From the sequence record OZ035768.1: a stretch of 55,927 bases of DNA, one strand, 5' to 3'. Both the position numbers and the translations under genes were made by a program. Of the stretch, positions 16,561-55,927 are shown in pieces. Every line of letters begins with the position of its first letter. The stretch's first letter is position 1. This DNA comes from Sashavirus 536P12. Below the pieces are notes generated by a model. It saw only the letters and a list, made by a program, of their open reading frames with translations, was not told where the DNA came from and made no database searches.

Positions 16561-16603
16561 ACGTAAAATAATTCTTGACGGATTACACCGACACAACTAC
16601 CCT
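16561..16603 (+). promoter_or_regulatory. conserved promoter element (P8, + orientation)
   Basis: AAAATAATTCTTGACGGATTACA with TTGACG at 16575-16580; divergent from P7 across region A. Confidence 0.6.
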
Positions 16604-30480: not shown

Positions 30481-32998
30481 TGTAATTGATGAACAGGCTG
30501 AAAACCTTGCTGAATGGTTGCTCGCAACATGGCCTGTCGGATCTGTTCGTCCACGTGGCCTTAAACTCTATAAAAATGAGGTTACTCCAGAAAATGACAT
30601 AACTCACGCGTGGGTTGGTGATCCGTCTGTAGTGATGGACAATAGTGCTAATTATATCGTTGTGGAACTTCCTAAAGGTCCGGTTGCTGCATTTGTTCCG
30701 TATATCATAGCAGCTATAGTTGCTGTTGCCGCAACTATTATTTTAACACCTAATGCGGGGCTATCTGCATCACTTAAAAATACTCGTTCAGCTTCTTCAA
30801 ATAACGCATTGCAAGGCCGTACCAACGCACCACGACCCGGTGAACGTATAGCAGATATCCGTGGTTATGTTCGTGCATACCCAGATCTTCTGATGGATTA
30901 TAAAATTTTCATTGACCGCACTGAATACGAAGTTCAGTTTCTATGTTTAGGCGCTGGTGAATATAAAATCGAAGATGTAAGAGATGGTATTACACCTGCG
31001 TTAAATATCAGTGGCGAACAGCTTGATTTTTATAAAAACAGTGCGGCACCTGGTTATGGTTCGCCATATATGAATATTGGCGGTGGTATCGATCTGTCTA
31101 AATTTCCAATAATGACAGCTAAATCATCAAATGAAGCCGATGGTTCTGAAGTCAAACCGCCTAATTATGCAGATATTAGTAACGCCAAATTTAAAATATT
31201 TAGCACGGGTGAAATTAATACCAGTATCACATCAGGAAGTGGTAACACTACTATTGATTGGACTGAACGTGCATCTACTGGTCAGGTTCGTCTTTCTGGT
31301 TTTTATAGTTTTACACCAAACACATTACCACTTAATACGTATACAAGAAATGATTTAAGCGGTTTATATGATGTTATATCATCCGGTGATGATTTTTTAA
31401 TACTTGACACTACTGGTCATGATGGGTGGGATGAATTATCATCTTCAGGTCAAGATGCGTATACACAGGCTTATTTGCGAAAAGACGGTTACTGGGAATT
31501 TGAAGCCACTGAAGGAAGCGAAAGTTTTTTATACAAATTTTCACCTGTTGTTGAAAGTACCGCACCTTATCAGGTTGGACCATACTTGTTAGATAGTGCA
31601 GATCGTGTAATGGTGAATTTGTATGCACAGTCTGGCGTATATAAAACAGATGGTGATATTTATCCTTTCACCTGTGATTTTCTTGTCATACTATCAGACC
31701 CCAATCATGTTCACGGGGATATTAGCCATTCTATGTCTGTTGTTGGTCGATATGATGAGGCTGTAGGTGCTACATTAATCGTAGATAATCCATTTAACGG
31801 ACCCGTTAATGTATCTGTTCGTCGTACTACTAATACAGATAAAGATTTCGAAGGTACTGTTGTAGATACGGTAAAATGGCGAGATTTATATGCTATAACT
31901 AATGTTCCCGCTCGTTCATATGGTGATGTAACATTAATTCATACAGTGACTAAAGCAACTAACGCAGCTTTAAAACAGAAAGAACGAAAACTAAACATGC
32001 TTGCAACCCGAGTGTATAATGGTGTTGCAAGTAGAAATTTTGCAGATGTAATAATGTCGATGCATACAGATCCATTTTTCGGTCGTCGAACTGTTGAAAG
32101 TATTGATGTTGACGCATTATATGACGTACAACAGCAGATATTAGATTATTTTGGTGATGGTCGTGCAATTGAAGTTGGTTATACATTTGACAGTAATAAC
32201 ACCACATATGAAGAAGCATTACAGGTTATTTGTGGACCAGTTAATATAATGCCCTATCAGGTCGGTAGTGTATTGTATTTCTGGCCTGAATTACCACAAG
32301 ACCAGTCCGCAATGCAGTTTGGTCATGCGTTTAAAGTACCAGATACTGATAAACGTACCCGGAGTTTTGCATCTAATAAAGATTTCACGGGTGTACAGGT
32401 GAAATATTTTGATCACGATGCTAAATCTTATTTATATATAACCAAAGGCGAAGAAACAAACCTTAATAAGATAGATCTTGTTGCGTGTCAGTCACGATAC
32501 CTTGCAAATATCCGTGCTAATCGTGAGATGAATAAATTACGTTATCAACGTATTACTCACGAGTGCACAGCGCTTAGTATCGGGTTACAGGCTACCCCGG
32601 GTATGCGTGTGGATATGATTGATAACACCCGTATGAAACAACACGAAGGTGTCGTAGTTGATGTTGACGGTTTAACGCTTATTCTTAGTGATCCTGTTAC
32701 GTTCACTACGGGTAATATATACAGCATAACGTTAACACACCGACTGGGAACACTTGAAAATATTCCTGTAACTGCCGGGGATGATGAATTTTCAGTGGTA
32801 ATGGCTTATCAACCGTCTGAAGAAATTTACACGGGGTGGTTACGTGACCGTACCGCATATGTTATCCGTGCTGATGACGAACGTAGCAAATTAGCGATGC
32901 TTGTTCAGAGTATGGAACCGTCAGGAAGAGATAATAACTATCAGGTAGGTTTAACGTGCATCAATTACGATGCACGTTATTATCAGGATGATTTATAA
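30434..32998 (+). CDS. tail tip / host-specificity protein candidate (gpI/gpJ-like region)
   Basis: 854 aa following the gpK-like gene; start uncertain (overlaps upstream gene by 47 nt). Confidence 0.5.
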   Translation: MVDIMARILYFKPGHDVIDEQAENLAEWLLATWPVGSVRPRGLKLYKNEVTPENDITHAWVGDPSVVMDNSANYIVVELPKGPVAAFVPYIIAAIVAVAATIILTPNAGLSASLKNTRSASSNNALQGRTNAPRPGERIADIRGYVRAYPDLLMDYKIFIDRTEYEVQFLCLGAGEYKIEDVRDGITPALNISGEQLDFYKNSAAPGYGSPYMNIGGGIDLSKFPIMTAKSSNEADGSEVKPPNYADISNAKFKIFSTGEINTSITSGSGNTTIDWTERASTGQVRLSGFYSFTPNTLPLNTYTRNDLSGLYDVISSGDDFLILDTTGHDGWDELSSSGQDAYTQAYLRKDGYWEFEATEGSESFLYKFSPVVESTAPYQVGPYLLDSADRVMVNLYAQSGVYKTDGDIYPFTCDFLVILSDPNHVHGDISHSMSVVGRYDEAVGATLIVDNPFNGPVNVSVRRTTNTDKDFEGTVVDTVKWRDLYAITNVPARSYGDVTLIHTVTKATNAALKQKERKLNMLATRVYNGVASRNFADVIMSMHTDPFFGRRTVESIDVDALYDVQQQILDYFGDGRAIEVGYTFDSNNTTYEEALQVICGPVNIMPYQVGSVLYFWPELPQDQSAMQFGHAFKVPDTDKRTRSFASNKDFTGVQVKYFDHDAKSYLYITKGEETNLNKIDLVACQSRYLANIRANREMNKLRYQRITHECTALSIGLQATPGMRVDMIDNTRMKQHEGVVVDVDGLTLILSDPVTFTTGNIYSITLTHRLGTLENIPVTAGDDEFSVVMAYQPSEEIYTGWLRDRTAYVIRADDERSKLAMLVQSMEPSGRDNNYQVGLTCINYDARYYQDDL

Positions 32999-44166: not shown

Positions 44167-44192
44167 TACGTTTTCCTCTTGTTGTTTGGTTG

Positions 44193-44240
44193 TCGCTAAC
44201 TTTAAAAGGTGTTGTGTAATCTGTCAAGAATTATTTTACA
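44193..44240 (-). promoter_or_regulatory. conserved promoter element (P11)
   Basis: GTCAAGAATTATTTTACA at 44223-44240; minus-strand -35 TTGACA, -10 TAAAGT. Confidence 0.6.
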
Positions 44241-44255
44241 CTCGCCTTTCGTTGA

Positions 44256-44303
44256 TGCAGATGTTAGAGGAATGAGTTGCAATACGTCAAGAACTATTTT
44301 AAA
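44256..44303 (-). promoter_or_regulatory. conserved promoter element (P12, tandem with P11)
   Basis: GTCAAGAACTATTTTAAA at 44286-44303; minus-strand -35 TTGACG. Confidence 0.55.
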
Positions 44304-44336
44304 CTTTTTTCACGATTCGATATTACAGGGTAGAAA

Positions 44337-45998: not shown

Positions 45999-46038
45999 TG
46001 GTAATCTGCATAGAAATATTTAAACGTAAGGAACTGTA

Positions 46039-46545
46039 ATGCGTGATTTGATGGTTGACATTGAAACGTGTGGTACTAAACCGGGTTGTGTAGTGCTGTC
46101 AATTGGCGCTGTTTACTTTGACCGTCAGGGTAACATTGGTGAAACGTTTTACGCATCAATGGGTTTTAATGCGCTCGCTTATGGTCACACAGACCCTGAC
46201 ACTATGAAGTGGTGGTCGCAGCAGTCAGAACAAGCACAAAAAGATGCTTTTGGTGGTACTGCCGATCCTGTTCAGGTTGCTAAAGATTTTGCCAAATTCA
46301 TCTGGCACGATGCTAAACCGTGGGGCAATGGTTCCACATTCGATATCACTATTCTGGAAGCATGGTTTAATGCGGTTGGTGTTCGTTGCCCGTGGAAGTT
46401 CTGGAACGTCCGTGATGTTCGTACCGCTGTTGATTTGCTGGGTATTAACCCGAAAGAATTTACCCGTGACGGTACTTACCACAATGCGTTAGACGACTGT
46501 TTACACCAGATTAAATATCTTACTAGCGGGACTAAAACATTATGA
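46039..46545 (+). CDS. DEDDh 3'-5' exonuclease (DnaQ-like)
   Basis: 168 aa; Exo I DIETCG, C-terminal H..LDDC motif. Confidence 0.65.
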   Translation: MRDLMVDIETCGTKPGCVVLSIGAVYFDRQGNIGETFYASMGFNALAYGHTDPDTMKWWSQQSEQAQKDAFGGTADPVQVAKDFAKFIWHDAKPWGNGSTFDITILEAWFNAVGVRCPWKFWNVRDVRTAVDLLGINPKEFTRDGTYHNALDDCLHQIKYLTSGTKTL

Positions 46546-47033
46546 CAACGCTTGAACAATGGGCGATTCGTCACGGTATTAGTCAGATGGCGTTGTACGA
46601 GTTATACGCTCTTTATCAGCCTGATGGAACACCACACGAAGACGGTGTAAGTGAAAGCGCTACCAGTAAAGAGTGTGAACTGATTGCGGCACGTGCAGGG
46701 CAACGTATCTGGCGTAATAACTCAGGTGCTCTGAAAAACAAAAAAGGAATGATGGTTCGTTATGGTCTTGGTAACACCAGTGCGAAAATCAACGCTGTTA
46801 TGAAGTCAAGCGACTACATCGGCATTAAAACCAAAATCGTTACACCAGACATGGTAGGTTCGAAAGTGGGTGTCTTTATTGCTGCCGAAATGAAACGCCC
46901 TGACTGGCACATGATCCCCAGTGATAAACGTGCACAAGCACAAGCCACTTTCGGTGCGATTGTTGAAAACGCAGGTGGTGAATTTCGTTTCATCACCCAT
47001 CCTTCACAATTTGAAAAATGGATTAAACAATGA
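46542..47033 (+). CDS. VRR-NUC domain nuclease candidate
   Basis: 163 aa; WRNNSGA...DYIGIK...AAEMKR pattern consistent with a PD-(D/E)xK VRR-NUC core. Confidence 0.5.
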   Translation: MTTLEQWAIRHGISQMALYELYALYQPDGTPHEDGVSESATSKECELIAARAGQRIWRNNSGALKNKKGMMVRYGLGNTSAKINAVMKSSDYIGIKTKIVTPDMVGSKVGVFIAAEMKRPDWHMIPSDKRAQAQATFGAIVENAGGEFRFITHPSQFEKWIKQ

Positions 47034-47305
47034 ATAAAAAATCTTTAATCGCAACAATTGTAAGTCCTGAATACAAACAAAAACGTGAATCAATAACGTC
47101 TGAAATTGTTTCTGAATTTGATGACGTTAAAAAAACAAACCAGCGCGTATCACGTCTACAAAAACTGATTGATAACCACGGTATTGAAGCTGTTGCTAAA
47201 CGTCTGAACGTTACTGAAATTCATGTTAAACGTAATCTGCTTACCGGGCGATCTGCTATCAACCTGGTCAAACTGATGGCTGCTGAACGTCAGTTCGGAG
47301 CGTAA
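47030..47305 (+). CDS. small HTH-like protein
   Basis: 91 aa; IEAVAKRLNVTEIHVKRNL resembles a helix-turn-helix. Confidence 0.4.
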   Translation: MNKKSLIATIVSPEYKQKRESITSEIVSEFDDVKKTNQRVSRLQKLIDNHGIEAVAKRLNVTEIHVKRNLLTGRSAINLVKLMAAERQFGA

Positions 47306-47308
47306 ATT

Positions 47309-49663
47309 ATGAAAGGGTTACTGAACCGTAAACAGTGGGTCATGTGGCGACTTGAGACAGTCGCCGATCGTCCAAAACCAACGAAAGTACCATACAGCCC
47401 GGTACACGGTTATAAAGCCAGTACCACTAACCCTAACGACTGGTCTGACTATCACACCGCGTTAGGTATGGCGCAAATGTACGGTATGTCTGGTGTTGGT
47501 TTTGTATTCACAGAAAATGACCCTTATTTCTTTATCGATATTGATAACTGTCTGGTAGATCAGGCAACAGCTACGTGGTCACCACTGGCGCATGAATTCG
47601 TAAACCGTTTTCCAAATGCTTACACTGAAGTCAGTCAGTCAGGAACAGGTTTGCATATCATCTGTGCTTATACCAGCATACCGGAAGGTTTTAACAGTCT
47701 GAACGACCAGAAAACCGGGCTGGAAATGTACTGGCGTGATCGTTTCGTCGCGATGACGCTCACGGGTAATGGTGATGTTGATATTGATTATACCCAGGGC
47801 ATTCATGATTCTATTGCCCGGTATGGTCGTATCCGTTCAGACCGTTCCGCACGCTGGACAACAGCACCTTGTGATGACTGGTCAGGTCCGGCAGACGATG
47901 ATGAACTGATTAAAATGGCGTTAAATTCGTCCAGTGCTGCTTCAGTATTTGGCAATAAAGCGTCATTTGCAGATCTGTGGAATGCAAACGTTGAACGTCT
48001 GTCTGTGTCATATCCTAGCGACCAGGGAAAAGACTACAATGCATCTGCCGCTGATGCTGCCCTGTGCTCACACCTTGCGTTCTGGACCGGGAAAGATTGC
48101 GAACGTATTGAACGATTGTTTAACCGTTCCGGGCTGGTTCGTGGTAAATGGACAGATCGTCAGGATTACCGTGAAAACACAATTCTGGGCGCTGTGGAAC
48201 GTTGTGATACGGTTTATCGTAGTCAACCGACGCTGACACCAGAACTGATGAAAGCAGTCACACCAGCGCCTACCATCGTTCCTAACGGTGGAACACCTGC
48301 GTACATGAGTGTGAAACCCGGTGAAGGTGCATATGGTTCAAACCATACTGTTAATGCATCCACTTTCGTTAATAACTATTATCCGAACAACACATTGATT
48401 TTCGTCCAGCAACAGCCGTACCGGTTCAACGGTCGCGTGTGGGAACGTGTGAGTGAAGATGAACTGAAACATCAGATATCTATGGCAATGCTCGCCAGCG
48501 AACCAAAAGCTGACGTAATTAACGGTACGTACAAGGTTTTGTCGTATTTATTCACACGCGCTGATCGTGAGCTTGGAACATGGCCAGGTGTTGATGTGTC
48601 ACACTACATTGTATGTCAGAACGGGATACTGGATGTACACACGGGTAAATGTGATGCACATAACCCGGATTTCTTTACGACCAGTATTTTACCGTATAGC
48701 TACGATCCGTTTGCCCGTGCGCCAGCATTTGAACAGTTTTTAAATACAACTCTGGAAGGTGATCAGGAACGTATTGCACTGTTGCAGGAATGGCTGGGTT
48801 ACATGCTTGTCAACTCATATGACTATCAGAAAGCGATGCTGTTGATTGGTGCACCACGTTCCGGTAAAGGTACGATTGGTCGCATCATTCAGGCACTGGT
48901 AGGTGATGAAGCGTATGCAGGGATCACACTAGAGGGTTTAGCTAGTGATGCGGTACTTGAAACTGTGTTGGATAAATCTGTGCTGTTTATTGGTGATGCT
49001 CACAGTGTGTCCGGGCCTGATCGCAACCGAATTCTGGACCGTTTCAAATCTATTACAGGTTGTGATGCGATTCCGGTTAATCGTAAATATAAAGGTGCAT
49101 GGAACGGTCGTTTACCGGGACGTATGACACTGGCTGCTAACAACATTCCGGCATTTGCTGATGATTCAGGTGCAATGGCTAACCGTTTGCTGATCCTGCC
49201 ATTCAACATTTCGTTCCTGGGTCGTGAAGATACCACTCTGGAAGCACGACTGATGAAAGAACTACCGGGGATCTGTAACTGGGCGATTGAAGGTTTACAA
49301 CGGTTACGTGCTAACGGACGATTTTCTGAACCAAAAGCAAGTCTGGAAGAACGTCAGGAAATTATGGATCAACAATCACCACTTAGAAGTTTTATCAGAG
49401 ATTGTTGCGAATTGGTATCTGATGGTGAGGTGCACACTGAAGAACTCTATGGTCGTTATCGTCTCTGGAAAACACAGGAAGGTGGTCCAGCAATGACTAA
49501 AACTGCATTTAGTCGGGCATTTAAATCCACCCTTCGTGGTAAAGTGAAAAAAGACGTCGTTAATATAAATAACGTTCGACTAAACGGTTTCAGGGGTATT
49601 CGTCTTCTCCCTTTTCAGTCAACAGCTAATGTAGTGCCTTTCCCACCTGCGAGTAACGGTTAG
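47309..49663 (+). CDS. primase-helicase (prim-pol N-terminal domain plus D5/SF3-type P-loop NTPase)
   Basis: 784 aa; prim-pol motifs FIDIDN and GLHIICAY; Walker A GAPRSGKGT. Confidence 0.75.
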   Translation: MKGLLNRKQWVMWRLETVADRPKPTKVPYSPVHGYKASTTNPNDWSDYHTALGMAQMYGMSGVGFVFTENDPYFFIDIDNCLVDQATATWSPLAHEFVNRFPNAYTEVSQSGTGLHIICAYTSIPEGFNSLNDQKTGLEMYWRDRFVAMTLTGNGDVDIDYTQGIHDSIARYGRIRSDRSARWTTAPCDDWSGPADDDELIKMALNSSSAASVFGNKASFADLWNANVERLSVSYPSDQGKDYNASAADAALCSHLAFWTGKDCERIERLFNRSGLVRGKWTDRQDYRENTILGAVERCDTVYRSQPTLTPELMKAVTPAPTIVPNGGTPAYMSVKPGEGAYGSNHTVNASTFVNNYYPNNTLIFVQQQPYRFNGRVWERVSEDELKHQISMAMLASEPKADVINGTYKVLSYLFTRADRELGTWPGVDVSHYIVCQNGILDVHTGKCDAHNPDFFTTSILPYSYDPFARAPAFEQFLNTTLEGDQERIALLQEWLGYMLVNSYDYQKAMLLIGAPRSGKGTIGRIIQALVGDEAYAGITLEGLASDAVLETVLDKSVLFIGDAHSVSGPDRNRILDRFKSITGCDAIPVNRKYKGAWNGRLPGRMTLAANNIPAFADDSGAMANRLLILPFNISFLGREDTTLEARLMKELPGICNWAIEGLQRLRANGRFSEPKASLEERQEIMDQQSPLRSFIRDCCELVSDGEVHTEELYGRYRLWKTQEGGPAMTKTAFSRAFKSTLRGKVKKDVVNINNVRLNGFRGIRLLPFQSTANVVPFPPASNG

Positions 49664-49681
49664 TCATTGCACAAGGATGTG

Positions 49682-49723
49682 TAAAATAATTCTTGACGAA
49701 TTACAGAGGTGTGCGCTATAGTC
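49682..49723 (+). promoter_or_regulatory. conserved promoter element (P13, + orientation)
   Basis: TAAAATAATTCTTGACGAATTACA; -35 TTGACG 49693-49698, 18-nt spacer, -10 TATAGT 49717-49722. Confidence 0.7.
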
Positions 49724-49753
49724 TGTACATCAAGTGAACAAGGAGTGATTGTT

Positions 49754-49966
49754 ATGAAACCACACTACCGATTAATGAGACTTTCACAGTGTCCTAATGG
49801 AACACGGTTTTATTTTTATCGTCTGAAGCAACTATTACCTTTCACGTTAATTGCTAACAGCTTCAAGAAATACGAAAGTATTTATCACGAGGGTCACGAT
49901 TTTAATATTACCGCGAGAAAATACAGAACGTCTATTCATAAACTTGTGTGGGCTAAGGTGAACTAA
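49754..49966 (+). CDS. hypothetical early protein
   Basis: ORF 49709 begins with GTG; likely start ATG 49754 after AAGGAG. Confidence 0.45.
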   Translation: MKPHYRLMRLSQCPNGTRFYFYRLKQLLPFTLIANSFKKYESIYHEGHDFNITARKYRTSIHKLVWAKVN

Positions 49967-49968
49967 TA

Positions 49969-50208
49969 ATGGGTGGTCGTGGATCATGTCGTCGAACTCG
50001 TTCATTACGCTGCAGTAAGTGTTATGAGCGAAACCTACGTGATTATTTATTAGGGTTTGGTACACGCAACTGGGAAAACGTTGAAGTTACTGGTGAAAAT
50101 GGAAACACTTACACCTGCCGTTGTGAATCCTGTGGTCACACTTATCAAACAACATCAGCGGCTGCACGTCGCGAATGGAAGTGGAAGAAAAACCATGTTA
50201 ATAACTAG
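49969..50208 (+). CDS. small Cys-rich zinc-finger-like protein
   Basis: 79 aa; CSKCYER...CRCESCGH. Confidence 0.45.
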   Translation: MGGRGSCRRTRSLRCSKCYERNLRDYLLGFGTRNWENVEVTGENGNTYTCRCESCGHTYQTTSAAARREWKWKKNHVNN

Positions 50209-50452
50209 TATTTTCATACTTGTATTTTGGATAATCATCGTTATACGTATAATTATTTGTGCTGTCATACAAAGAAAAATGATTGATTTTTATTATTCTG
50301 ATAAAAGTGGTTGGGACACACATCAACAGAGTATGTTTGATGCTTACCCACAATTAGATACTTTCAAAATGATTTTTAAATTCTGGGTATGGCCTATGTC
50401 AAAATTCTATCCTGAATACAGGAAAGGTAAAAACCATGAAAAACATATTTGA
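50195..50452 (+). CDS. small membrane protein
   Basis: ORF 50057; likely start ATG 50195; hydrophobic LITSIFILVFWIIIVIRIIICAVI. Confidence 0.35.
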   Translation: MLITSIFILVFWIIIVIRIIICAVIQRKMIDFYYSDKSGWDTHQQSMFDAYPQLDTFKMIFKFWVWPMSKFYPEYRKGKNHEKHI

Positions 50453-50633
50453 CCGTTTAATTACTGTTATCGTATTTCTTGTATCCGTAACGCTCGCGTC
50501 TTGTATTGTCGGACTAATGACCCGTGGTAATCATGCGGAAACACCGTGGTGGTTTCTGGCAGGTATTGGATTATTAGCGGCTGCGGCATCAATTGATGCT
50601 TGCATGTGGGGAGTGAAAAACGATCATGACTGA
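50436..50633 (+). CDS. small membrane protein (2 TM)
   Basis: 65 aa; LITVIVFLVSVTLASCIVGLM and WWFLAGIGLLAAAASI. Confidence 0.45.
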   Translation: MKNIFDRLITVIVFLVSVTLASCIVGLMTRGNHAETPWWFLAGIGLLAAAASIDACMWGVKNDHD

Positions 50634-50841
50634 ATTCGGTGCTGTAATCAAAAAAGAAGACCGTTATGCACATATTGATACCCGGATTACCTGGGTTGAT
50701 ATCAGTGAAGCTACTCTGTTCAGTTCAACTTACATGGCTGGTGTTGCACTTAAATCACTTCGCGATCAGGGTTTCAATTGCAGAAAAGTAACAATTGCTC
50801 CTGTTAAAATCACGCGGATCGTAGAGGAAACAGAAGGATGA
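50626..50841 (+). CDS. hypothetical protein
   Basis: 71-aa ORF. Confidence 0.4.
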   Translation: MTEFGAVIKKEDRYAHIDTRITWVDISEATLFSSTYMAGVALKSLRDQGFNCRKVTIAPVKITRIVEETEG

Positions 50842-50865
50842 ATATTGCTGGTAGGAGTATTGATT

Positions 50866-51063
50866 ATGCAAGTAGGTAATTGTTATTTATATCCTAAAAC
50901 AGATCTGTTTGAAAAATGTTGGGTGGTAATAACCTATTCAAATCCGTGTCAGGGAGTTATCATGTGGGATGATGGTAAATGTCAGACTTCAATGATAAAT
51001 GATCAGGACATGCGAGGCTGTCAATTAGTTGGATGTAATATGAAGATGAGATCAACACAATGA
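50866..51063 (+). CDS. hypothetical Cys-containing protein
   Basis: ORF 50845 begins with TTG; likely start ATG 50866 after AGGAG. Confidence 0.35.
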   Translation: MQVGNCYLYPKTDLFEKCWVVITYSNPCQGVIMWDDGKCQTSMINDQDMRGCQLVGCNMKMRSTQ

Positions 51064-51455
51064 TAATCGTCGTCACAGGTGGTCGTGACTTCAACGACAG
51101 AGTAGCAGTATTTTCCGCGTTAGGACTACTTCACAAACAATTCCCCATTACCGAACTAATTGAAGGTGGTGCGTCAGGTGTTGATAACCTGTGTAAGCAA
51201 TGGGCGCAGTTACACAGTATTCCTGTGCGTAGTTGCCCGGCAGCGTGGGACGATCTGACTGTACCTGGTGCGGTTGTAAAACAGGGCAAGCACGGGCCTT
51301 ATAACGCTGTTGCAGGTCATCAACGTAATCAGGCGATGTTAGAGGGTGAGCCACGCCCTACATATGGTGTTGTGTTCCCCGGTGGGCGTGGTACTGCTGA
51401 TATGCATCGTCGCATGTTGAAAGCTGGTTTAACTGTGTGGGTTCCATATCCTTAA
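51060..51455 (+). CDS. DUF2493 / SLOG-family protein (predicted nucleotide-binding)
   Basis: 131 aa; MIIVVTGGRDF...GGASGVDNL...GHQRNQAM...VVFPGGRGT pattern; stop overlaps promoter P14. Confidence 0.5.
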   Translation: MIIVVTGGRDFNDRVAVFSALGLLHKQFPITELIEGGASGVDNLCKQWAQLHSIPVRSCPAAWDDLTVPGAVVKQGKHGPYNAVAGHQRNQAMLEGEPRPTYGVVFPGGRGTADMHRRMLKAGLTVWVPYP

Positions 51456-51493
51456 AATAATTCTTGACAGATTACCAACCCTCCCCGATAATT
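51452..51493 (+). promoter_or_regulatory. conserved promoter element (P14, + orientation)
   Basis: TTAAAATAATTCTTGACAGATTACCA; -35 TTGACA 51464-51469, 17-nt spacer, -10 GATAAT 51487-51492. Confidence 0.7.
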
Positions 51494-51518
51494 AGCCTCA
51501 GTTAACACACATGAGGCT
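51494..51518. promoter_or_regulatory. palindromic element AGCCTCA-N11-TGAGGCT at the transcription start region (operator or leader hairpin candidate)
   Basis: inverted repeat directly visible; near reverse complement of the element at 13803-13824; GAGG in its 3' arm is the SD for the ATG at 51527. Confidence 0.45.
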
Positions 51519-51526
51519 AAACACAA

Positions 51527-51622
51527 ATGGCTAACATTAACTCCCTTCGCAAGCTATCTGATACCGATAAAACCAATGTAAAACGTGGTAATGCGTATCA
51601 TCAAGATTCGTCCAGGGCATAA
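51527..51622 (+). CDS. small ORF (31 aa) downstream of P14
   Basis: ATG 51527 nine nt after GAGG; stop TAA at 51620-51622. Confidence 0.25.
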   Translation: MANINSLRKLSDTDKTNVKRGNAYHQDSSRA

Positions 51623-51894
51623 CCCACGCGGTGAATGGTCTGTAACCCGTTCGGAAAGTGGTAAAGTCCTGGTTGAACTTACCACTGAACAGTTCGAAGC
51701 GTTAAAAGCACTGAAGGAGCACCAGTTATGAAAACTATGTCAGACAACTTAACATCAATTTACGGTACGTTGACCTGTCGTTCTAAATTTAAACCGTTGA
51801 CAAAAGAAGAAGAACGTCAGTGTAAGTTTAATAACAGTTTTCCCAGCGTTAATGAAAATCGTTGGATTGCCAAACTGACCGGGAGTAAAAAGAA

Positions 51895-52119
51895 ATGACT
51901 ATCCGACTGATGAATCCAACCGTTGCCCGTAATATTAAACCGGGCGACAAGATTGAAGTATTTAATGAATGGTACTGGGTACGCTATATCAATTACCACG
52001 GGGCAACACTTACCCTTCGCTTACAACCGGAAGATGAACCGCTATCACCATTTTGCGAAAACGACCGCGTTGTGGTGACAGTACCAGAAGATTTAACGAT
52101 TGATGTCGAGGTGCGTTAA
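51895..52119 (+). CDS. hypothetical early protein
   Basis: 74-aa ORF. Confidence 0.45.
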   Translation: MTIRLMNPTVARNIKPGDKIEVFNEWYWVRYINYHGATLTLRLQPEDEPLSPFCENDRVVVTVPEDLTIDVEVR

Positions 52120-52443
52120 ATGACTGTATATGAAATGGAAGGTTTTCTTCGTGGTAAATGTGTTCCGGGCGACCTGAAAGTTAACGAAACAAACGCTGAA
52201 TATCTGGTACGTAAATTTGGTGAACTTGAAAATAAATGTGCGGCGCTGGTTACGGAGAATGTTCGACTTAAGTCAGGTATAGCTGGCCTGATACATCTCG
52301 GTATTCGATACGCAGATGTTGATGTAATGAAAATTGCTGGAGACGCACAGCTTTCCACTCCATGTACTGATGACATCATAAACAGCATTACCCAAAAAGA
52401 AACCAGTGATAAAAGTGCACAAGCACAAAATGTTCCCTCGTAA
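52120..52443 (+). CDS. hypothetical early protein
   Basis: 107-aa ORF. Confidence 0.45.
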   Translation: MTVYEMEGFLRGKCVPGDLKVNETNAEYLVRKFGELENKCAALVTENVRLKSGIAGLIHLGIRYADVDVMKIAGDAQLSTPCTDDIINSITQKETSDKSAQAQNVPS

Positions 52444-52672
52444 TGGTTTGAAGTGGTCCGCACGAGATCTGACGTTATTAAAAATTAATGCAGGAAAGAT
52501 CAGTGCGGACGAAATAGCGTATTACCTTCGCCGGGACGTTGAAGCGGTGCACATTAAAGCGTCACGTCTCGGTATATCACTGGTAACCAATAAATGTAAA
52601 CGTGGTCATACGCGAGTTTACCAAAAAGGTAGATGGCGCTGTCCTGAGTGTAGAAAATTAAAAGGGTATTAA
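52430..52672 (+). CDS. small protein with C-terminal zinc-ribbon-like motif
   Basis: ORF 52406; likely start ATG 52430; CKRGHTRVYQKGRWRCPEC. Confidence 0.35.
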   Translation: MFPRNGLKWSARDLTLLKINAGKISADEIAYYLRRDVEAVHIKASRLGISLVTNKCKRGHTRVYQKGRWRCPECRKLKGY

Positions 52673-52674
52673 AG

Positions 52675-52908
52675 ATGAAAATTAAAAACATGGCTACAAG
52701 TGGTCTGTCAGGCCGTATCTTTTACGGTACGATGGAAACAAAAGACGGTGGTCAGTCTGGTAAATGGTTAGCAGGAAAGCAAGACGTTACTGATATGGCG
52801 ATCCGCGCCGTTGCTGAACATTGTCATCTGACAGGGAACGAATATTCATTTACGCTTAACGACGGTCGTGTGATTACACTGGCAGTAACAGAGGTACAAC
52901 CATCATGA
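52675..52908 (+). CDS. hypothetical early protein
   Basis: 77-aa ORF. Confidence 0.4.
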   Translation: MKIKNMATSGLSGRIFYGTMETKDGGQSGKWLAGKQDVTDMAIRAVAEHCHLTGNEYSFTLNDGRVITLAVTEVQPS

Positions 52909-53474
52909 CACCTGAACAATTCGCAACAGCAGCACACGGTGATCAACTTCGTAAGTACACCAACGACCCATATGTGAACCACTGCCGGAACGTTGCTGAA
53001 CTGGTTAAACGCTATGGTGGTACGCCGGATATGGTTACCGCTGCCTGGCTGCATGACGTCGTTGAAGATACACCCGTGACCGTGGGTGATGTGTGTTCGC
53101 AGTTCGGTGAGACTGTGGCACGTTATGTTGATCAGCTTACTGATGTGAGTCGTCCACACCACGGCAACCGTGTTAAGCGTAAAGCACGGGACATCGACCA
53201 TTTATCACGGGCTGAACCTGTAGTGAAAACTATAAAACTGTGTGATCTGCTAGATAACACCTCTTCAATTGTCCGACACGATCCGAAGTTTGCTGTAACA
53301 TACCTGGCTGAAAAACAACTCATGCTTGCTCACCTGTCAGACACCAGTAATCAGGAGTTATACGCGCTTGTTGAGCGTGAATTGTTTAAAGCCAAATACA
53401 AACTAACGAACGTCCAGTTGACCGCGTTTGACAAACACTACGACGCACTGGTTAAAGCGATGGGGGAGTTGTGA
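52905..53474 (+). CDS. HD-domain hydrolase, SpoT/Mesh1-like small alarmone hydrolase candidate
   Basis: 189 aa; AAHGDQLRKYTNDPYVNHCRNVA and AAWLHDVVEDT match the HD signature of (p)ppGpp hydrolase domains. Confidence 0.6.
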   Translation: MTPEQFATAAHGDQLRKYTNDPYVNHCRNVAELVKRYGGTPDMVTAAWLHDVVEDTPVTVGDVCSQFGETVARYVDQLTDVSRPHHGNRVKRKARDIDHLSRAEPVVKTIKLCDLLDNTSSIVRHDPKFAVTYLAEKQLMLAHLSDTSNQELYALVERELFKAKYKLTNVQLTAFDKHYDALVKAMGEL

Positions 53475-53783
53475 TTATGAAAGAAATAGAACAACTGGTT
53501 AAACGTTTACGTGCTGCTGATCATCAACTTACTGTTGAAAATAACTGGATAGTGGTTAATCCACCATGTTCTTTATCTGATACGCTTTTAATTCAGAAAT
53601 TGAATAAAGGTGAAAAACTGGCTAAGTATATTAAGGAAAACCCGTAATGAAACTAAAACTTCCAGGATACTGGTTTTCCGTAAGCTGGAACAATTACAGT
53701 AATTGGGGTTATTTCAAACTATGGTATGACGGCCCGTACCGCGCATTCTGGATCGGTCGTCTTTGTTTCGAATGGTGGTGGCG

Positions 53784-54005
53784 ATGATTGCAGATCACTT
53801 ACTGTGTAAACTACGTGCGGACCTGATTAATAAAAAGTTTTGTCGTGATATAAACAAACCACTTGTATTTGTAAAAATGCTCAACGTCTATAGAGCAGGT
53901 CGTGGTTTTAAGGTCATGTTCAGATACGGTGATGACGGTCATGTCGTATATTGTGGTTACACCAATTTTTTGAAACGTTACCCGGAGGAACTAACACATG
54001 AATAA
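53784..54005 (+). CDS. hypothetical early protein
   Basis: ORF 53763; likely start ATG 53784 after GGTGGTGG. Confidence 0.35.
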   Translation: MIADHLLCKLRADLINKKFCRDINKPLVFVKMLNVYRAGRGFKVMFRYGDDGHVVYCGYTNFLKRYPEELTHE

Positions 54006-54207
54006 AGCATCGCCTGTAGAAATACGTAAGTGTCTTGAAATGGCAAACAGTCTTGCACATGCCGGGATTAGATTTGTCCCTGTACCAGTAACCAGTGATG
54101 ATGAATTTAATTCGCTGGTTTCTCATTCGTACGGGATGCTAAACAAAATAGCAGACGATTGTGATACAACTAACCGCCAGTTCGAAAGCCTGGCTAATCA
54201 TAAATAA
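53998..54207 (+). CDS. hypothetical early protein
   Basis: 69-aa ORF; GGAA SD. Confidence 0.4.
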   Translation: MNKASPVEIRKCLEMANSLAHAGIRFVPVPVTSDDEFNSLVSHSYGMLNKIADDCDTTNRQFESLANHK

Positions 54208-54270
54208 CTACCCGTTCATACTAATCATCAGTGCGCTCTATGTGGCGCACGTTTTCTGGGAGATGTACCG

Positions 54271-54558
54271 ATGACCATAAGACGTGTTGTGTGTGCGGCA
54301 AATAAATATGAACTTAACGATGGTTCAACTAAAATTTTCACGGGTATCCGACACTATTGTCCCGTTATGCGTCAGAATATGGAGTTCTGGAAATTATCCA
54401 TCAAACGTTCTACAGAAATACAAGGCTTTGTAGATCAGTATGGTGTTTTTATGGACCGTTTTGAAGCACTTCAGGTTGCAAAAGATTCCGGGCAACTGAA
54501 TATCGCCAGACCAAAAACATCACCTGAAGATCGGTTATTTAGCAAGGACTTATACTAA
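54271..54558 (+). CDS. hypothetical protein
   Basis: 95-aa ORF followed by a terminator. Confidence 0.45.
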   Translation: MTIRRVVCAANKYELNDGSTKIFTGIRHYCPVMRQNMEFWKLSIKRSTEIQGFVDQYGVFMDRFEALQVAKDSGQLNIARPKTSPEDRLFSKDLY

Positions 54559-54584
54559 CAAAAAAGCGGGGCTAACTACCCCGC
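54559..54584. terminator. bidirectional terminator hairpin
   Basis: AAAAAA + GCGGGGCTAACTACCCCGC between convergent genes. Confidence 0.6.
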
Positions 54585-54589
54585 TATCT

Positions 54590-55345
54590 TTATTGACCCA
54601 TCATATCTTTATACATCATCAAAACAACATCATCCGGCATATTGTCTACATCACAATGTGGGTTGTGTGATAACGCATACAGTCTGATTTTCTCCTTCAA
54701 ATCGCTGACATCGACTACAGGTGGTTCCACTCGTGTTACAGGTGGTTCCACTCGTGTTACAGGTGGTTCCACTCGTGTTACAGGTGGTTCACAAACCATC
54801 ACGTTAAACGGTGTACCGGTGCCTTCGTATTTTTCAAGCAAATCGACCATTACGTTTACACATTCCGGGATCCAGCCCCGGCGCAAACCATTCTGAATCC
54901 AACTGTCAGTAATTGTGTGTTCGTTTAAATTTCTGCGTAGCACATATCTTGCACATTCAAAATTACCGCACATCGCCTCAAACCGTGTCCACACGTCGTG
55001 ACCGTGAACAGCTTCCAGGATCTGTGAATCAACGTATCTGACACGTTGCCAGTATTTATTAGCAAAACGCCTGTGTGGTAATTTCTGACGCAGTTCGGTA
55101 ACCGGTATTGTGTGTTTAAGAACAATATTTTCGTCAGAATGTTGTACTGGCAAGGGTGACAGTGTGAAGTCAGTAATCTCTTCAAGAATAATACTGATCG
55201 TTTCATATTTAGGATGAAACCTACCGCTTAACCATTGGTTGTAACGACCAACAGTTACCTTAACACCCCGACGATTAAGGTATTCAACAGCGTTTTGTAC
55301 CCCGCCTTTTAAATCTATCAATTCGTCTAAAAGGTTCTTTTTCAT
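54590..55345 (-). CDS. HTH-like protein with C-terminal VEPPVTR tandem repeats (candidate regulator of adjacent operator-like repeats)
   Basis: ORF 54590..55381; likely start ATG 55345 with AAGGGTG SD; N-terminal LIDLKGGVQNAVEYLNRRGVKVTVGRYNQW resembles an HTH. Confidence 0.45.
   Translation of the reverse strand: MKKNLLDELIDLKGGVQNAVEYLNRRGVKVTVGRYNQWLSGRFHPKYETISIILEEITDFTLSPLPVQHSDENIVLKHTIPVTELRQKLPHRRFANKYWQRVRYVDSQILEAVHGHDVWTRFEAMCGNFECARYVLRRNLNEHTITDSWIQNGLRRGWIPECVNVMVDLLEKYEGTGTPFNVMVCEPPVTRVEPPVTRVEPPVTRVEPPVVDVSDLKEKIRLYALSHNPHCDVDNMPDDVVLMMYKDMMGQ
54718..54790. repeat. 21-bp tandem repeat x3.5 (caggtggttccactcgtgtta)
   Basis: perfect direct repeats inside the CDS, in frame. 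Confidence 0.9.
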
Positions 55346-55380
55346 TATCACACCCTTCTTGTTTGACCACGGGTAAATCA

Positions 55381-55927
55381 TAACGCGCGTTAGCAGCTAG
55401 TGCAAGACGTGCTTTATATGTTAGTGTGTTTACACCTAATGCATGTTGTGCATTAGCAGTTAGTGCAAGATGCACGTTGTGTATTAGCTGTTAGTGCACG
55501 TTGTGTATCTATGTTGGTACAGCTAATGCACGTTGTGAATTATATAATGCATGTTGTGCATTAAAGTTATACTTAACATAGATTTCGTCATGTTTACTTT
55601 TTAACCAACCCCTCTCTATCTTATTCTTTTTATTATCTTTTTATAGATAACATAGAAAACATAGATATAAAGAAGAAGTAGTATAGAAAGATAGAGATAG
55701 TGCATATAGTGTATTAGCTGTAAATAGAGCTAAAATAAAAGTCTGGGAGATACCTATTGTAATCTATGTTTTTATGCAAGTCTTTGAATTGATTGTGATT
55801 ATGGGCTACGTATTTATGTATGTAATCGAAAATTAGTGCATGTTGTGCACTAACTGTAAAATTAATACTAACGTTGTATTAGCTGTAAAACAGGGCGTGT
55901 GGACAACCCGTGGGTATCTGTGGGAAA
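55381..55927. repeat. iteron / operator-rich AT-rich region B (candidate origin, pac-proximal or regulatory region)
   Basis: multiple copies of TGCACGTTGTG / TATTAGCTG motifs; palindrome TTAGTGCA-N5-TGCACTAA (~55840-55860); 69-bp block 55578-55646 ~97% identical to 16382-16450; AT-rich core. Confidence 0.7.

Follow-up and report, generated by a model that had tools for sequence, protein, structure and literature searches.

Several described regions come close to the one considered here. In 9NA-like phages, a block bounded by the same flanks and keeping the same promoters and core gene order has been annotated in 9NA (gp75-gp82), Sasha (gp71-gp80) and KarinMuster (Bas82_0075-0093). The accessory regions of Silas et al. 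(bioRxiv 10.1101/2023.04.06.535777), a concept already in print, are variable hotspots of small genes lying between the core genes of related enterobacteriophages. Small early accessory genes also make up the exo-xis region of lambda and Stx phages (orf60a, orf63, orf61, orf73, ea22) and the ea genes of P22; lambda Orf63, the subject of PDB entry 8DSB, is pL-early and pro-lytic (PMC10869804), earliest-class transcription with a pro-lytic phenotype being known for Orf63/DUF1382 in lambda and phi24B only. Here we describe positions 49682-54558 of a 55,927-nucleotide (nt) sequence of Sashavirus 536P12 (record OZ035768.1), the whole of which we call the window. A preliminary description had taken this stretch to be a host-takeover or anti-defence island of about 15 small genes behind strong promoters. 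Our conclusion is that it is probably, if by no means certainly, a right-end accessory region whose gene content has been shuffled. Accessory regions are an ordinary feature of phage genomes and of a known kind, and the present findings leave the understanding of them unchanged.

The best megablast match to 49682-54558 among phage genomes is the Escherichia phage KarinMuster_Bas82 (hereafter Bas82; 86% covered, 98.1% identity), followed by AVIO78A, PDP46, PJ16, Sasha, Sergei and Solent, and more distantly by Salmonella phage 9NA and Klebsiella relatives. Because the best matches are all 9NA-like phages, we assign the window, from its sequence, to a 9NA-like siphophage (Nonanavirus/Sashavirus) that is predicted to be virulent. 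The region is flanked on the left by a gene for a D5/P4-type primase of 784 amino acids (aa; 47309-49663) and on the right by a convergent minus-strand gene (54590-55381), and the matched relatives have the same flanks. Using the primase and the convergent gene as bounds, we called genes and clustered proteins in the window and in 12 related loci. Across these 13 loci the island ranges from 3.1 kilobases (kb) in 9NA to 8.9 kb, and its 250 proteins fall into 70 families, of which 28 are singletons and five (gp71-like, lipoprotein, gp73-like, SLOG and ParB-like) occur in at least 12 loci. Every pair of loci differs in gene content, while gene order is conserved. The variable slots hold a C5-cytosine methyltransferase, HNH, NADAR, MazG, T5orf172, a Vut_1 transporter and many proteins of no known function. 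Conserved flanks around a gene content that differs among close relatives are the mark of an accessory region, and the island has both. Compared with the corresponding 9NA-like regions, the island in the window has lost its ParB-like gene and the 76-aa gene that precedes it, has had its last gene replaced by a T4_Y16D-family cassette, and is without HNH, NADAR and the methyltransferase, which is annotated in the records of 8 loci. From the regions of Silas et al. it differs in having five conserved genes among the variable ones, and in being known from sequence alone.

Part of the exchange has been with lambdoid phages. The protein encoded at 52120-52443 has tblastn matches to features annotated Eae, Ea22 and hkaH, and its DNA is 77-88% identical to that of HK620, HK106 and Stx phages. 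The protein encoded at 53998-54207 matches 8DSB at 6e-11 over residues 2-46, and lambda imm434 at 31071-31196. Together with DUF2737, the Orf63/DUF1382 homologue, the EaE/HkaH N-terminal module and the Ea22-like coiled coil are what the window has in common with the exo-xis and ea regions. This amounts to only 3-4 of 18 genes, however; the lambda and Stx genes are transcribed from pL with N antitermination whereas those in the window have their own sigma-70 promoters, and a virulent phage has no lysogeny decision to bias. Taken together, the comparisons show that cassettes have been swapped freely between and after the genes of a five-gene scaffold, some of them with lambdoid phages.

The region consists of two tandem operons, one beginning at promoter P13 and the other at P14, with a shared bidirectional terminator, containing 18 small genes, rather than the 15 or so first proposed, and one broken ParB-like gene (Table 1). 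The 18 plus-strand open reading frames (ORFs), of 46-189 aa, occupy ~92% of 49754-54558; most have a Shine-Dalgarno (SD)-like motif 5-12 nt upstream, as had been noted in the preliminary description, and in several cases the start overlaps the stop of the gene before. PHROG families are matched by 16 of the 18 (E between 1e-6 and 1e-48), and the other two (50866-51063 and 54271-54558) still have homologues of the same length. The ratio of non-synonymous to synonymous differences from relatives (pN/pS, Nei-Gojobori counts) is 0.03-0.44 in most comparisons, those of the 46-, 56- and 65-aa genes included; the few higher values, 0.63-0.82, each rest on four or fewer differences. Given the PHROG and Pfam matches, the low pN/pS and the coding density, sequence comparison shows that the 18 ORFs behave as genuine genes under purifying selection. 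Five ORFs had been proposed that were missing from the ORF track. Those at 51728-51898, 53477-53647 and 53647-53787 are among the 18, while those at 51527-51622 and ~51593-51733 are the two ends of the ParB-like gene. The zinc-finger-like proteins (at 49969 and 52430) and small membrane proteins (at 50195 and 50436) described earlier are borne out by the Cys motifs, transmembrane segments and lipobox visible in the translations, as are the SLOG/DUF2493-like protein and the HD hydrolase by their Pfam matches. The statement that none of the genes has an assigned function was wrong at least for the HD protein and the Orf63 homologue, and too strong for the EaE/Ea22-like mosaic and the YAcAr SLOG protein. 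New names thus become available for genes annotated 'hypothetical' or 'polyphosphate hydrolase': Orf63 homologue, EaE/Ea22-like mosaic and small alarmone hydrolase.

These same data bear on whether the island is largely neutral or selfish cargo, that is, morons and homing-endonuclease-associated cassettes kept by recombination with little benefit to the phage. The HNH and T5orf172 homing-type endonucleases in the relatives' islands, the 28 singleton families and the tolerated loss of a core gene would suit such an origin. Nevertheless, pN/pS is well under 1 for essentially every gene, even those of 46-65 aa; the genes also keep their order between loci, and many lie so close together that start and stop codons overlap. 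We regard this explanation as extremely unlikely.

The core gene that was lost is the ParB-like one. Positions 51527-51599 align to the first 73 nt of Bas82_0082 (ParB-like, 255 aa, HTH_ParB), 51596-51633 to a stretch 17 nt farther on, and 51627-51731 to the final 105 nt of the gene, so that 17 nt and 546 nt are missing relative to both Bas82 and PDP46. What remains are residues 1-27 and the last ~34, in different frames, and the helix-turn-helix (HTH) region (aa 133-192) is gone. The gene is intact (252-255 aa; HTH_ParB, TIGR00180) in all 12 of the other loci examined, and the deletion junction had no second occurrence in the viral or genome collections searched. The 76-aa gene that stands before it in Bas82 and PDP46 is likewise absent from the window. 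Since an otherwise universal core gene has been destroyed here without loss of the phage, this shows that lytic growth does not require the ParB-like gene. In the leader of the same operon, the hairpin at 51492-51520 may act in translational control or be bound by the ParB-like protein.

Table 1. Features of the island at 49682-54558 and of its terminator, with the matches and values on which each entry is based.
Feature	Coordinates	Strand	Basis
Promoter P13	49685..49722	+	UP/-35 block AATAATTCTTGACG, 18-nt spacer, -10 TATAGT; annotated promoter at same site in AVIO78A
gp71-like gene, 70 aa, core (12/13 loci)	49754..49966	+	phrog_9291 5e-39; 79% identical to 9NA gp75; pN/pS 0.10-0.19
Cys-rich protein, 79 aa, zinc-ribbon-like (CxxC ... 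CxCxxC)	49969..50208	+	phrog_28753 1e-6; pN/pS 0.07-0.14
85-aa protein, N-terminal transmembrane helix	50195..50452	+	phrog_25285 6e-16, profile begins at ATG 50195
Lipoprotein, 65 aa, lipobox LASC, 2 transmembrane segments; core (13/13 loci)	50436..50633	+	phrog_22517 'lipoprotein' 1e-46; Sasha gp72 annotated with SPII site
gp73-like gene, 71 aa, core (12/13 loci)	50626..50841	+	phrog_26050 2e-48; pN/pS 0-0.44
Cys-rich ORFan, 65 aa	50866..51063	+	directly upstream of SLOG gene; pN/pS 0.28-0.33
YAcAr (DUF2493) stand-alone SLOG protein, 131 aa, core	51060..51455	+	PF10686 1.7e-18; 66.6 bits vs cutoff 28.2
Promoter P14	51456..51492	+	AATAATTCTTGACA, 17-nt spacer, -10 GATAAT; annotated promoter in AVIO78A
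Hairpin/palindrome in 5' untranslated region	51492..51520	+	AGCCUCAG...UGAGGCU; dG -13.1 kcal/mol, z -4.6; covers SD of ParB-like gene
ParB-like pseudogene	51527..51731	+	5' end 51527-51599, 17-nt deletion (frameshift), 546-nt deletion, 3' end 51627-51731
DUF2737 protein, 56 aa	51728..51898	+	PF10930 1.5e-5, 25.2 bits vs cutoff 25; phrog_1117; family common in lambdoid/P22-like phages
74-aa protein	51895..52119	+	phrog_8705 2e-25; sub-threshold Mu-transpos_C match; pN/pS 0.15-0.23
107-aa mosaic	52120..52443	+	EaE/HkaH-type lambdoid N-terminus (aa 1-43) and Ea22-type coiled coil (aa 43-91); phrog_614/583
80-aa protein, C-terminal Cx3H...CxxC, zinc-ribbon-like	52430..52672	+	phrog_323 6e-6 ('transcriptional regulator, D5-like', weak); pN/pS 0.10-0.30
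DUF7446 protein, 77 aa	52675..52908	+	PF24233 1.4e-19
Small alarmone hydrolase (predicted), 189 aa	52905..53474	+	PF13328 4e-15; pN/pS 0.04-0.10
56-aa protein	53477..53647	+	phrog_5649 1e-9; family in 6/13 loci
46-aa Trp-rich protein	53647..53787	+	phrog_34921 4e-20; pN/pS 0.17-0.21
73-aa protein	53784..54005	+	phrog_36357 4e-8; also in Bas82 and PJ16
Lambda Orf63 homologue (DUF1382), 69 aa	53998..54207	+	PF07131 3.7e-23, 81.8 bits vs cutoff 27
T4_Y16D-family protein (PF26092), 95 aa	54271..54558	+	129 homologues carry PF26092; cassette absent from six closest relatives
Bidirectional intrinsic terminator	54565..54585	both	closes island and convergent gene 54590-55381; annotated in Sasha and AVIO78A

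The promoters P13 and P14 are indeed strong by sequence: a pattern scan of 46000-55927 returns them as its two best sigma-70-like sites, with 10 of 12 consensus matches at 49693-49722 (TTGACG, 18 nt, TATAGT) and 11 of 12 at 51464-51492 (TTGACA, 17 nt, GATAAT), in an interval where such sites are rarer than in shuffles (9 vs 23). Both are copies of a 25-nt motif, TTAAAATAATTCTTGACrGATTrCA, which occurs 13 times in the window (minus strand at 1034, 2845, 9223, 11446, 12588, 16264, 24513, 26457, 44227 and 44290; plus strand at 16575, 49693 and 51464); the exact 13-mer AATAATTCTTGAC occurs 11 times, against ~0.002 expected by chance (2 x 55927 / 4^13). The UP/-35 part is invariant across the 13 copies, while the -10 hexamers vary from TATAAT to TACCCT, those of P13 and P14 ranking among the best four. 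Ten of the 13 point leftward, ahead of small minus-strand gene clusters and the DNA-polymerase operon. The interleaving of these clusters with plus-strand structural genes is an unusual genome layout. Since no comparable sigma-70-type plus-strand promoter is recognisable at 44167-44336, ahead of the helicase-exonuclease-primase operon, the island appears to be transcribed separately from that operon. Two conserved promoters at 44167-44336 point in the direction opposite to it. At the far end, 54565-54585 forms a G+C-rich hairpin with an A-run and a T-rich stretch on its sides, and scores as a terminator on both strands.

Early or constitutive transcription of the island is plausible, given its consensus host-type promoters and its homologues of the lambda pL-early exo-xis genes. 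Unmodified host RNA polymerase would read P13 and P14 without phage factors, and the genes would be made early or throughout infection. Rather than forming one system, their products would each act separately on the physiology of the host and on competing elements. The Orf63 homologue and the EaE/Ea22-like protein would have modulating effects on the host similar to those of their counterparts in lambda, the SLOG protein would bind or process some nucleotide or single-stranded DNA (ssDNA), and superinfection exclusion is a candidate role for the lipoprotein and the membrane proteins, one that for the lipoprotein we only infer.

The gene in the island for which a counter-defence role is credible, by analogy with an experimental precedent, is the one at 52905-53474, and it is the only one. 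Its product is, from its motifs, a Mesh1-type small alarmone hydrolase (SAH) consisting of an HD domain only, with predicted activity. Only PF13328 HD_4 and PF01966 HD match it, TIGR00691 doing so solely through its N-terminal hydrolase part; an NCBIfam scan matched only this RelA/SpoT hydrolase part and ParB. The best PDB matches are Lmo0812 (4e-15) and human HDDC3/MESH1 (1.5e-13), with Drosophila Mesh1 also aligned, and in the alignment to Lmo0812 and human HDDC3 all catalytic motifs are kept (HxxQxRK, PYxNH, LHDxVEDT and KxxDxLxN). The annotation in relatives is 'polyphosphate hydrolase' or '(p)ppGpp synthetase'. Stand-alone SAHs of phages PVP-SE1 and SSU5, as well as human MESH1, neutralise all toxSAS toxins tested, CapRel included (PMC7229694), and PaSpo strips the tRNA pyrophosphate added by FaRel2 (PMC11559606). 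CapRel has been established as an anti-phage system (PMC9712102), and the stringent response can itself restrict phages. The SAH in the window resembles PaSpo (from SSU5) and PbcSpo (from PVP-SE1) in having a single HD_4 domain of ~190 aa with conserved catalytic motifs, and in belonging to an enterobacterial phage, but differs in matching Mesh1-type enzymes best, with E values of only 5e-5 to 2e-4 for the PDB chains that bear the name small alarmone hydrolase. Such an enzyme would remove the 3'-pyrophosphate from (p)ppGpp or (p)ppApp, and possibly from toxSAS-modified tRNA, and would in this way weaken both the stringent response and abortive infection of the CapRel type.

Whether the SAH is one member of a dedicated island, in which most of the small proteins inhibit bacterial immunity or act as shut-off factors, is a separate question. 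The location behind strong promoters and the hypervariability typical of counter-defence loci would fit such a function, as would the SAH itself and the cytosine methyltransferase, NADAR and MazG in the same island of relatives. The DUF7446 protein also has a borderline similarity to residues 87-149 of Septu PtuB (PDB 8ee7; E 0.0038), with the motifs GKQDVxDMA, HCH and LxDGR in common; no PADLOC PtuB model supports this similarity, and we keep it as a lead only. On the other hand, PADLOC scans of 19 island proteins returned nothing at E <= 0.01, no validated anti-defence family was matched other than the SAH superfamily, no Ocr/Ard or sponge family is found in the window, and the methyltransferase and NADAR are absent from it. 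Several of the genes are developmental modulators of lambda exo-xis type, not known inhibitors, and the five core genes are conserved, not fast-turning-over. Furthermore, the passages available to us from the defence study of the near-identical phage Bas82 record sensitivity to restriction-modification (RM) systems and Old. We therefore consider a dedicated island unlikely. Of the host-takeover and anti-defence label there remains a promoter-driven block of small, non-structural accessory genes, one of which has a counter-defence precedent; the wider claim finds no PADLOC or validated family match beyond the SAH. As a name, 'anti-defence island' is reasonable but over-specific, and over-describes a functionally mixed accessory region.

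Several points also weigh against our own account of an accessory region expressed early and active on the host. About 11 of the 18 proteins offer no functional clue. The early timing is drawn from sequence only, and one copy of the promoter motif (16575, plus strand), with a poor -10 (TACCCT), precedes the head-gene block, so that the motif by itself cannot define 'early'. The SAH is of Mesh1-like type and not of the PaSpo and PbcSpo subfamilies tested from phages. Finally, the same passages describe Bas82 as not especially robust against the defence systems tested. They make no mention of toxSAS systems, and to that extent the proposed role of the SAH is untouched by the Bas82 sensitivity results.

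A further explanation is that the island extends the replication or nucleotide-metabolism module, its ParB-like, SLOG (DprA-like fold), HD hydrolase (MazG in relatives) and methyltransferase genes serving DNA handling and the control of nucleotide pools instead of countering host immunity. Helicase, exonuclease and primase directly precede the island on the same strand. In other phages and prophages, YAcAr genes adjoin those for DNA polymerase, helicase, sliding clamp or a Cas4-like exonuclease; the family is present in 612 phage records, its bacterial copies lying within prophages and, once, in a replication module. In the SLOG protein the Gly-rich loops GGR, GGAxGxD and PGGxGT are present, G7, G8, R9, G36, G40, G108, G111 and T112 being invariant in 57 homologues, and the AlphaFold2 (AF2) model (predicted local distance difference test, pLDDT, 96.4) has a Rossmann-like SLOG fold. 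The fold matches of this model are weak and at superfamily level (ShosA, LOG, DprA and the TRPM2 SLOG domain; TMq 0.5-0.69), and include two ssDNA binders, DprA and ShosA. The literature on DUF2493/YAcAr function yielded nothing usable. Mutual exclusion of SAH and MazG in the 13 loci (7 vs 2) also agrees with a metabolic role. However, the ParB-like gene is dispensable here, 9NA lacks both the SLOG and the HD protein, most of the genes encode tiny proteins with no enzymatic signatures, and the exo-xis-type and membrane proteins are ill-suited to replication. Weighing these, we find an extension of the replication module distinctly unlikely, and return to the accessory region.

An SAH is encoded in seven loci (the window, L001, L002, L004, L006, L009 and L011) and a MazG-like pyrophosphohydrolase in two (L013 and L014), never together. 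On these small numbers, the two may be alternative solutions to one task. A more specific idea, which we think very unlikely to be right, is that the SLOG protein and its adjoining variable slot (the Cys-rich 65-aa protein here; NADAR, HNH or methyltransferase in relatives) form a module that intercepts nucleotide signals, in which the SLOG protein would sequester or degrade ADP-ribose-derived or other nucleotide immune messengers, and pyrophosphorylated alarmones or tRNA would be erased by the neighbouring SAH (by MazG in other relatives). If true, two or more messenger-erasing counter-defences would reside in the island, of types so far not demonstrated in the 9NA-like group. For counter-defence screens of BASEL-type Nonanavirus phages, the candidates rank with the SAH (against CapRel/toxSAS) first, followed by SLOG and its neighbour.

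An anti-Shosta role for the SLOG protein was considered, and the ShosA match, the top one by fold at 13% identity, was not counted as evidence for it. Its Cys-rich neighbour (50866-51063) sits in the slot of the relatives' C5-cytosine methyltransferase; we rejected the idea that this ORF is a methyltransferase remnant, as it resembles the methyltransferase neither in DNA nor in protein sequence and has same-length homologues under purifying selection. No PHROG or Pfam family matches the protein, and its only homologues are two diverged clusters, both of 65 aa and both encoded directly upstream of YAcAr.

Elsewhere in the first operon, the gene at 49969-50208 is annotated in PDP46 and AVIO78A and left out in Bas82. 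The pN/pS of the 79-aa frame and the start of the PHROG profile at ATG 50195 favour reading 49969-50452 as two genes (79 aa and 85 aa), as in the PDP46 annotation. In place of this pair, Bas82 has a single annotated 117-aa ORF, Bas82_0076 (L001 3418-3771). With this pair and the ParB-like pseudogene, the gene map makes small corrections to the annotation published for the phage group. A search of 1.8 billion representatives with the gp71-like protein returned 21 clusters only, all of small proteins and none informative.

In the second operon, the 80-aa protein (52430-52672) is a candidate DNA-binding regulator on account of its weak similarity to the phrog_323 family ('transcriptional regulator, D5-like'). 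The T4_Y16D-family protein is modelled by AF2 at pLDDT 95.6 and has several invariant polar residues (among them R27, Q51, D55 and R63); the model matches none of the solved structures, and the protein may represent an enzyme or a binding fold still to be characterised. PDB sequence searches with the 107-aa, 80-aa, 74-aa, 71-aa and 95-aa proteins gave nothing significant. Antisense ORFs at 52116-52463 and 52824-53201 were dismissed as spurious, both lying wholly opposite plus-strand genes with PHROG or Pfam matches, and no Rfam or tRNA match was obtained anywhere in the window.

Beyond the island, the convergent gene at 54590-55381 contains a perfect 21-nt tandem repeat, in ~3.5 copies at 54716-54790, that encodes EPPVTRV repeats. 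A similar 'direct tandem repeat region' is annotated in the orthologue in the Sasha record, and the length of the protein differs between relatives. Past the 5' end of this gene, a ~21-44-nt repeat, TAATGCAyGTTGTGCATTAGC(a/t)GT, recurs in direct and inverted orientation at 55374-55877, with five copies or more; these are mostly non-coding, the first overlapping the start codon of the gene, and resemble iterons, operators or a pac-related array.

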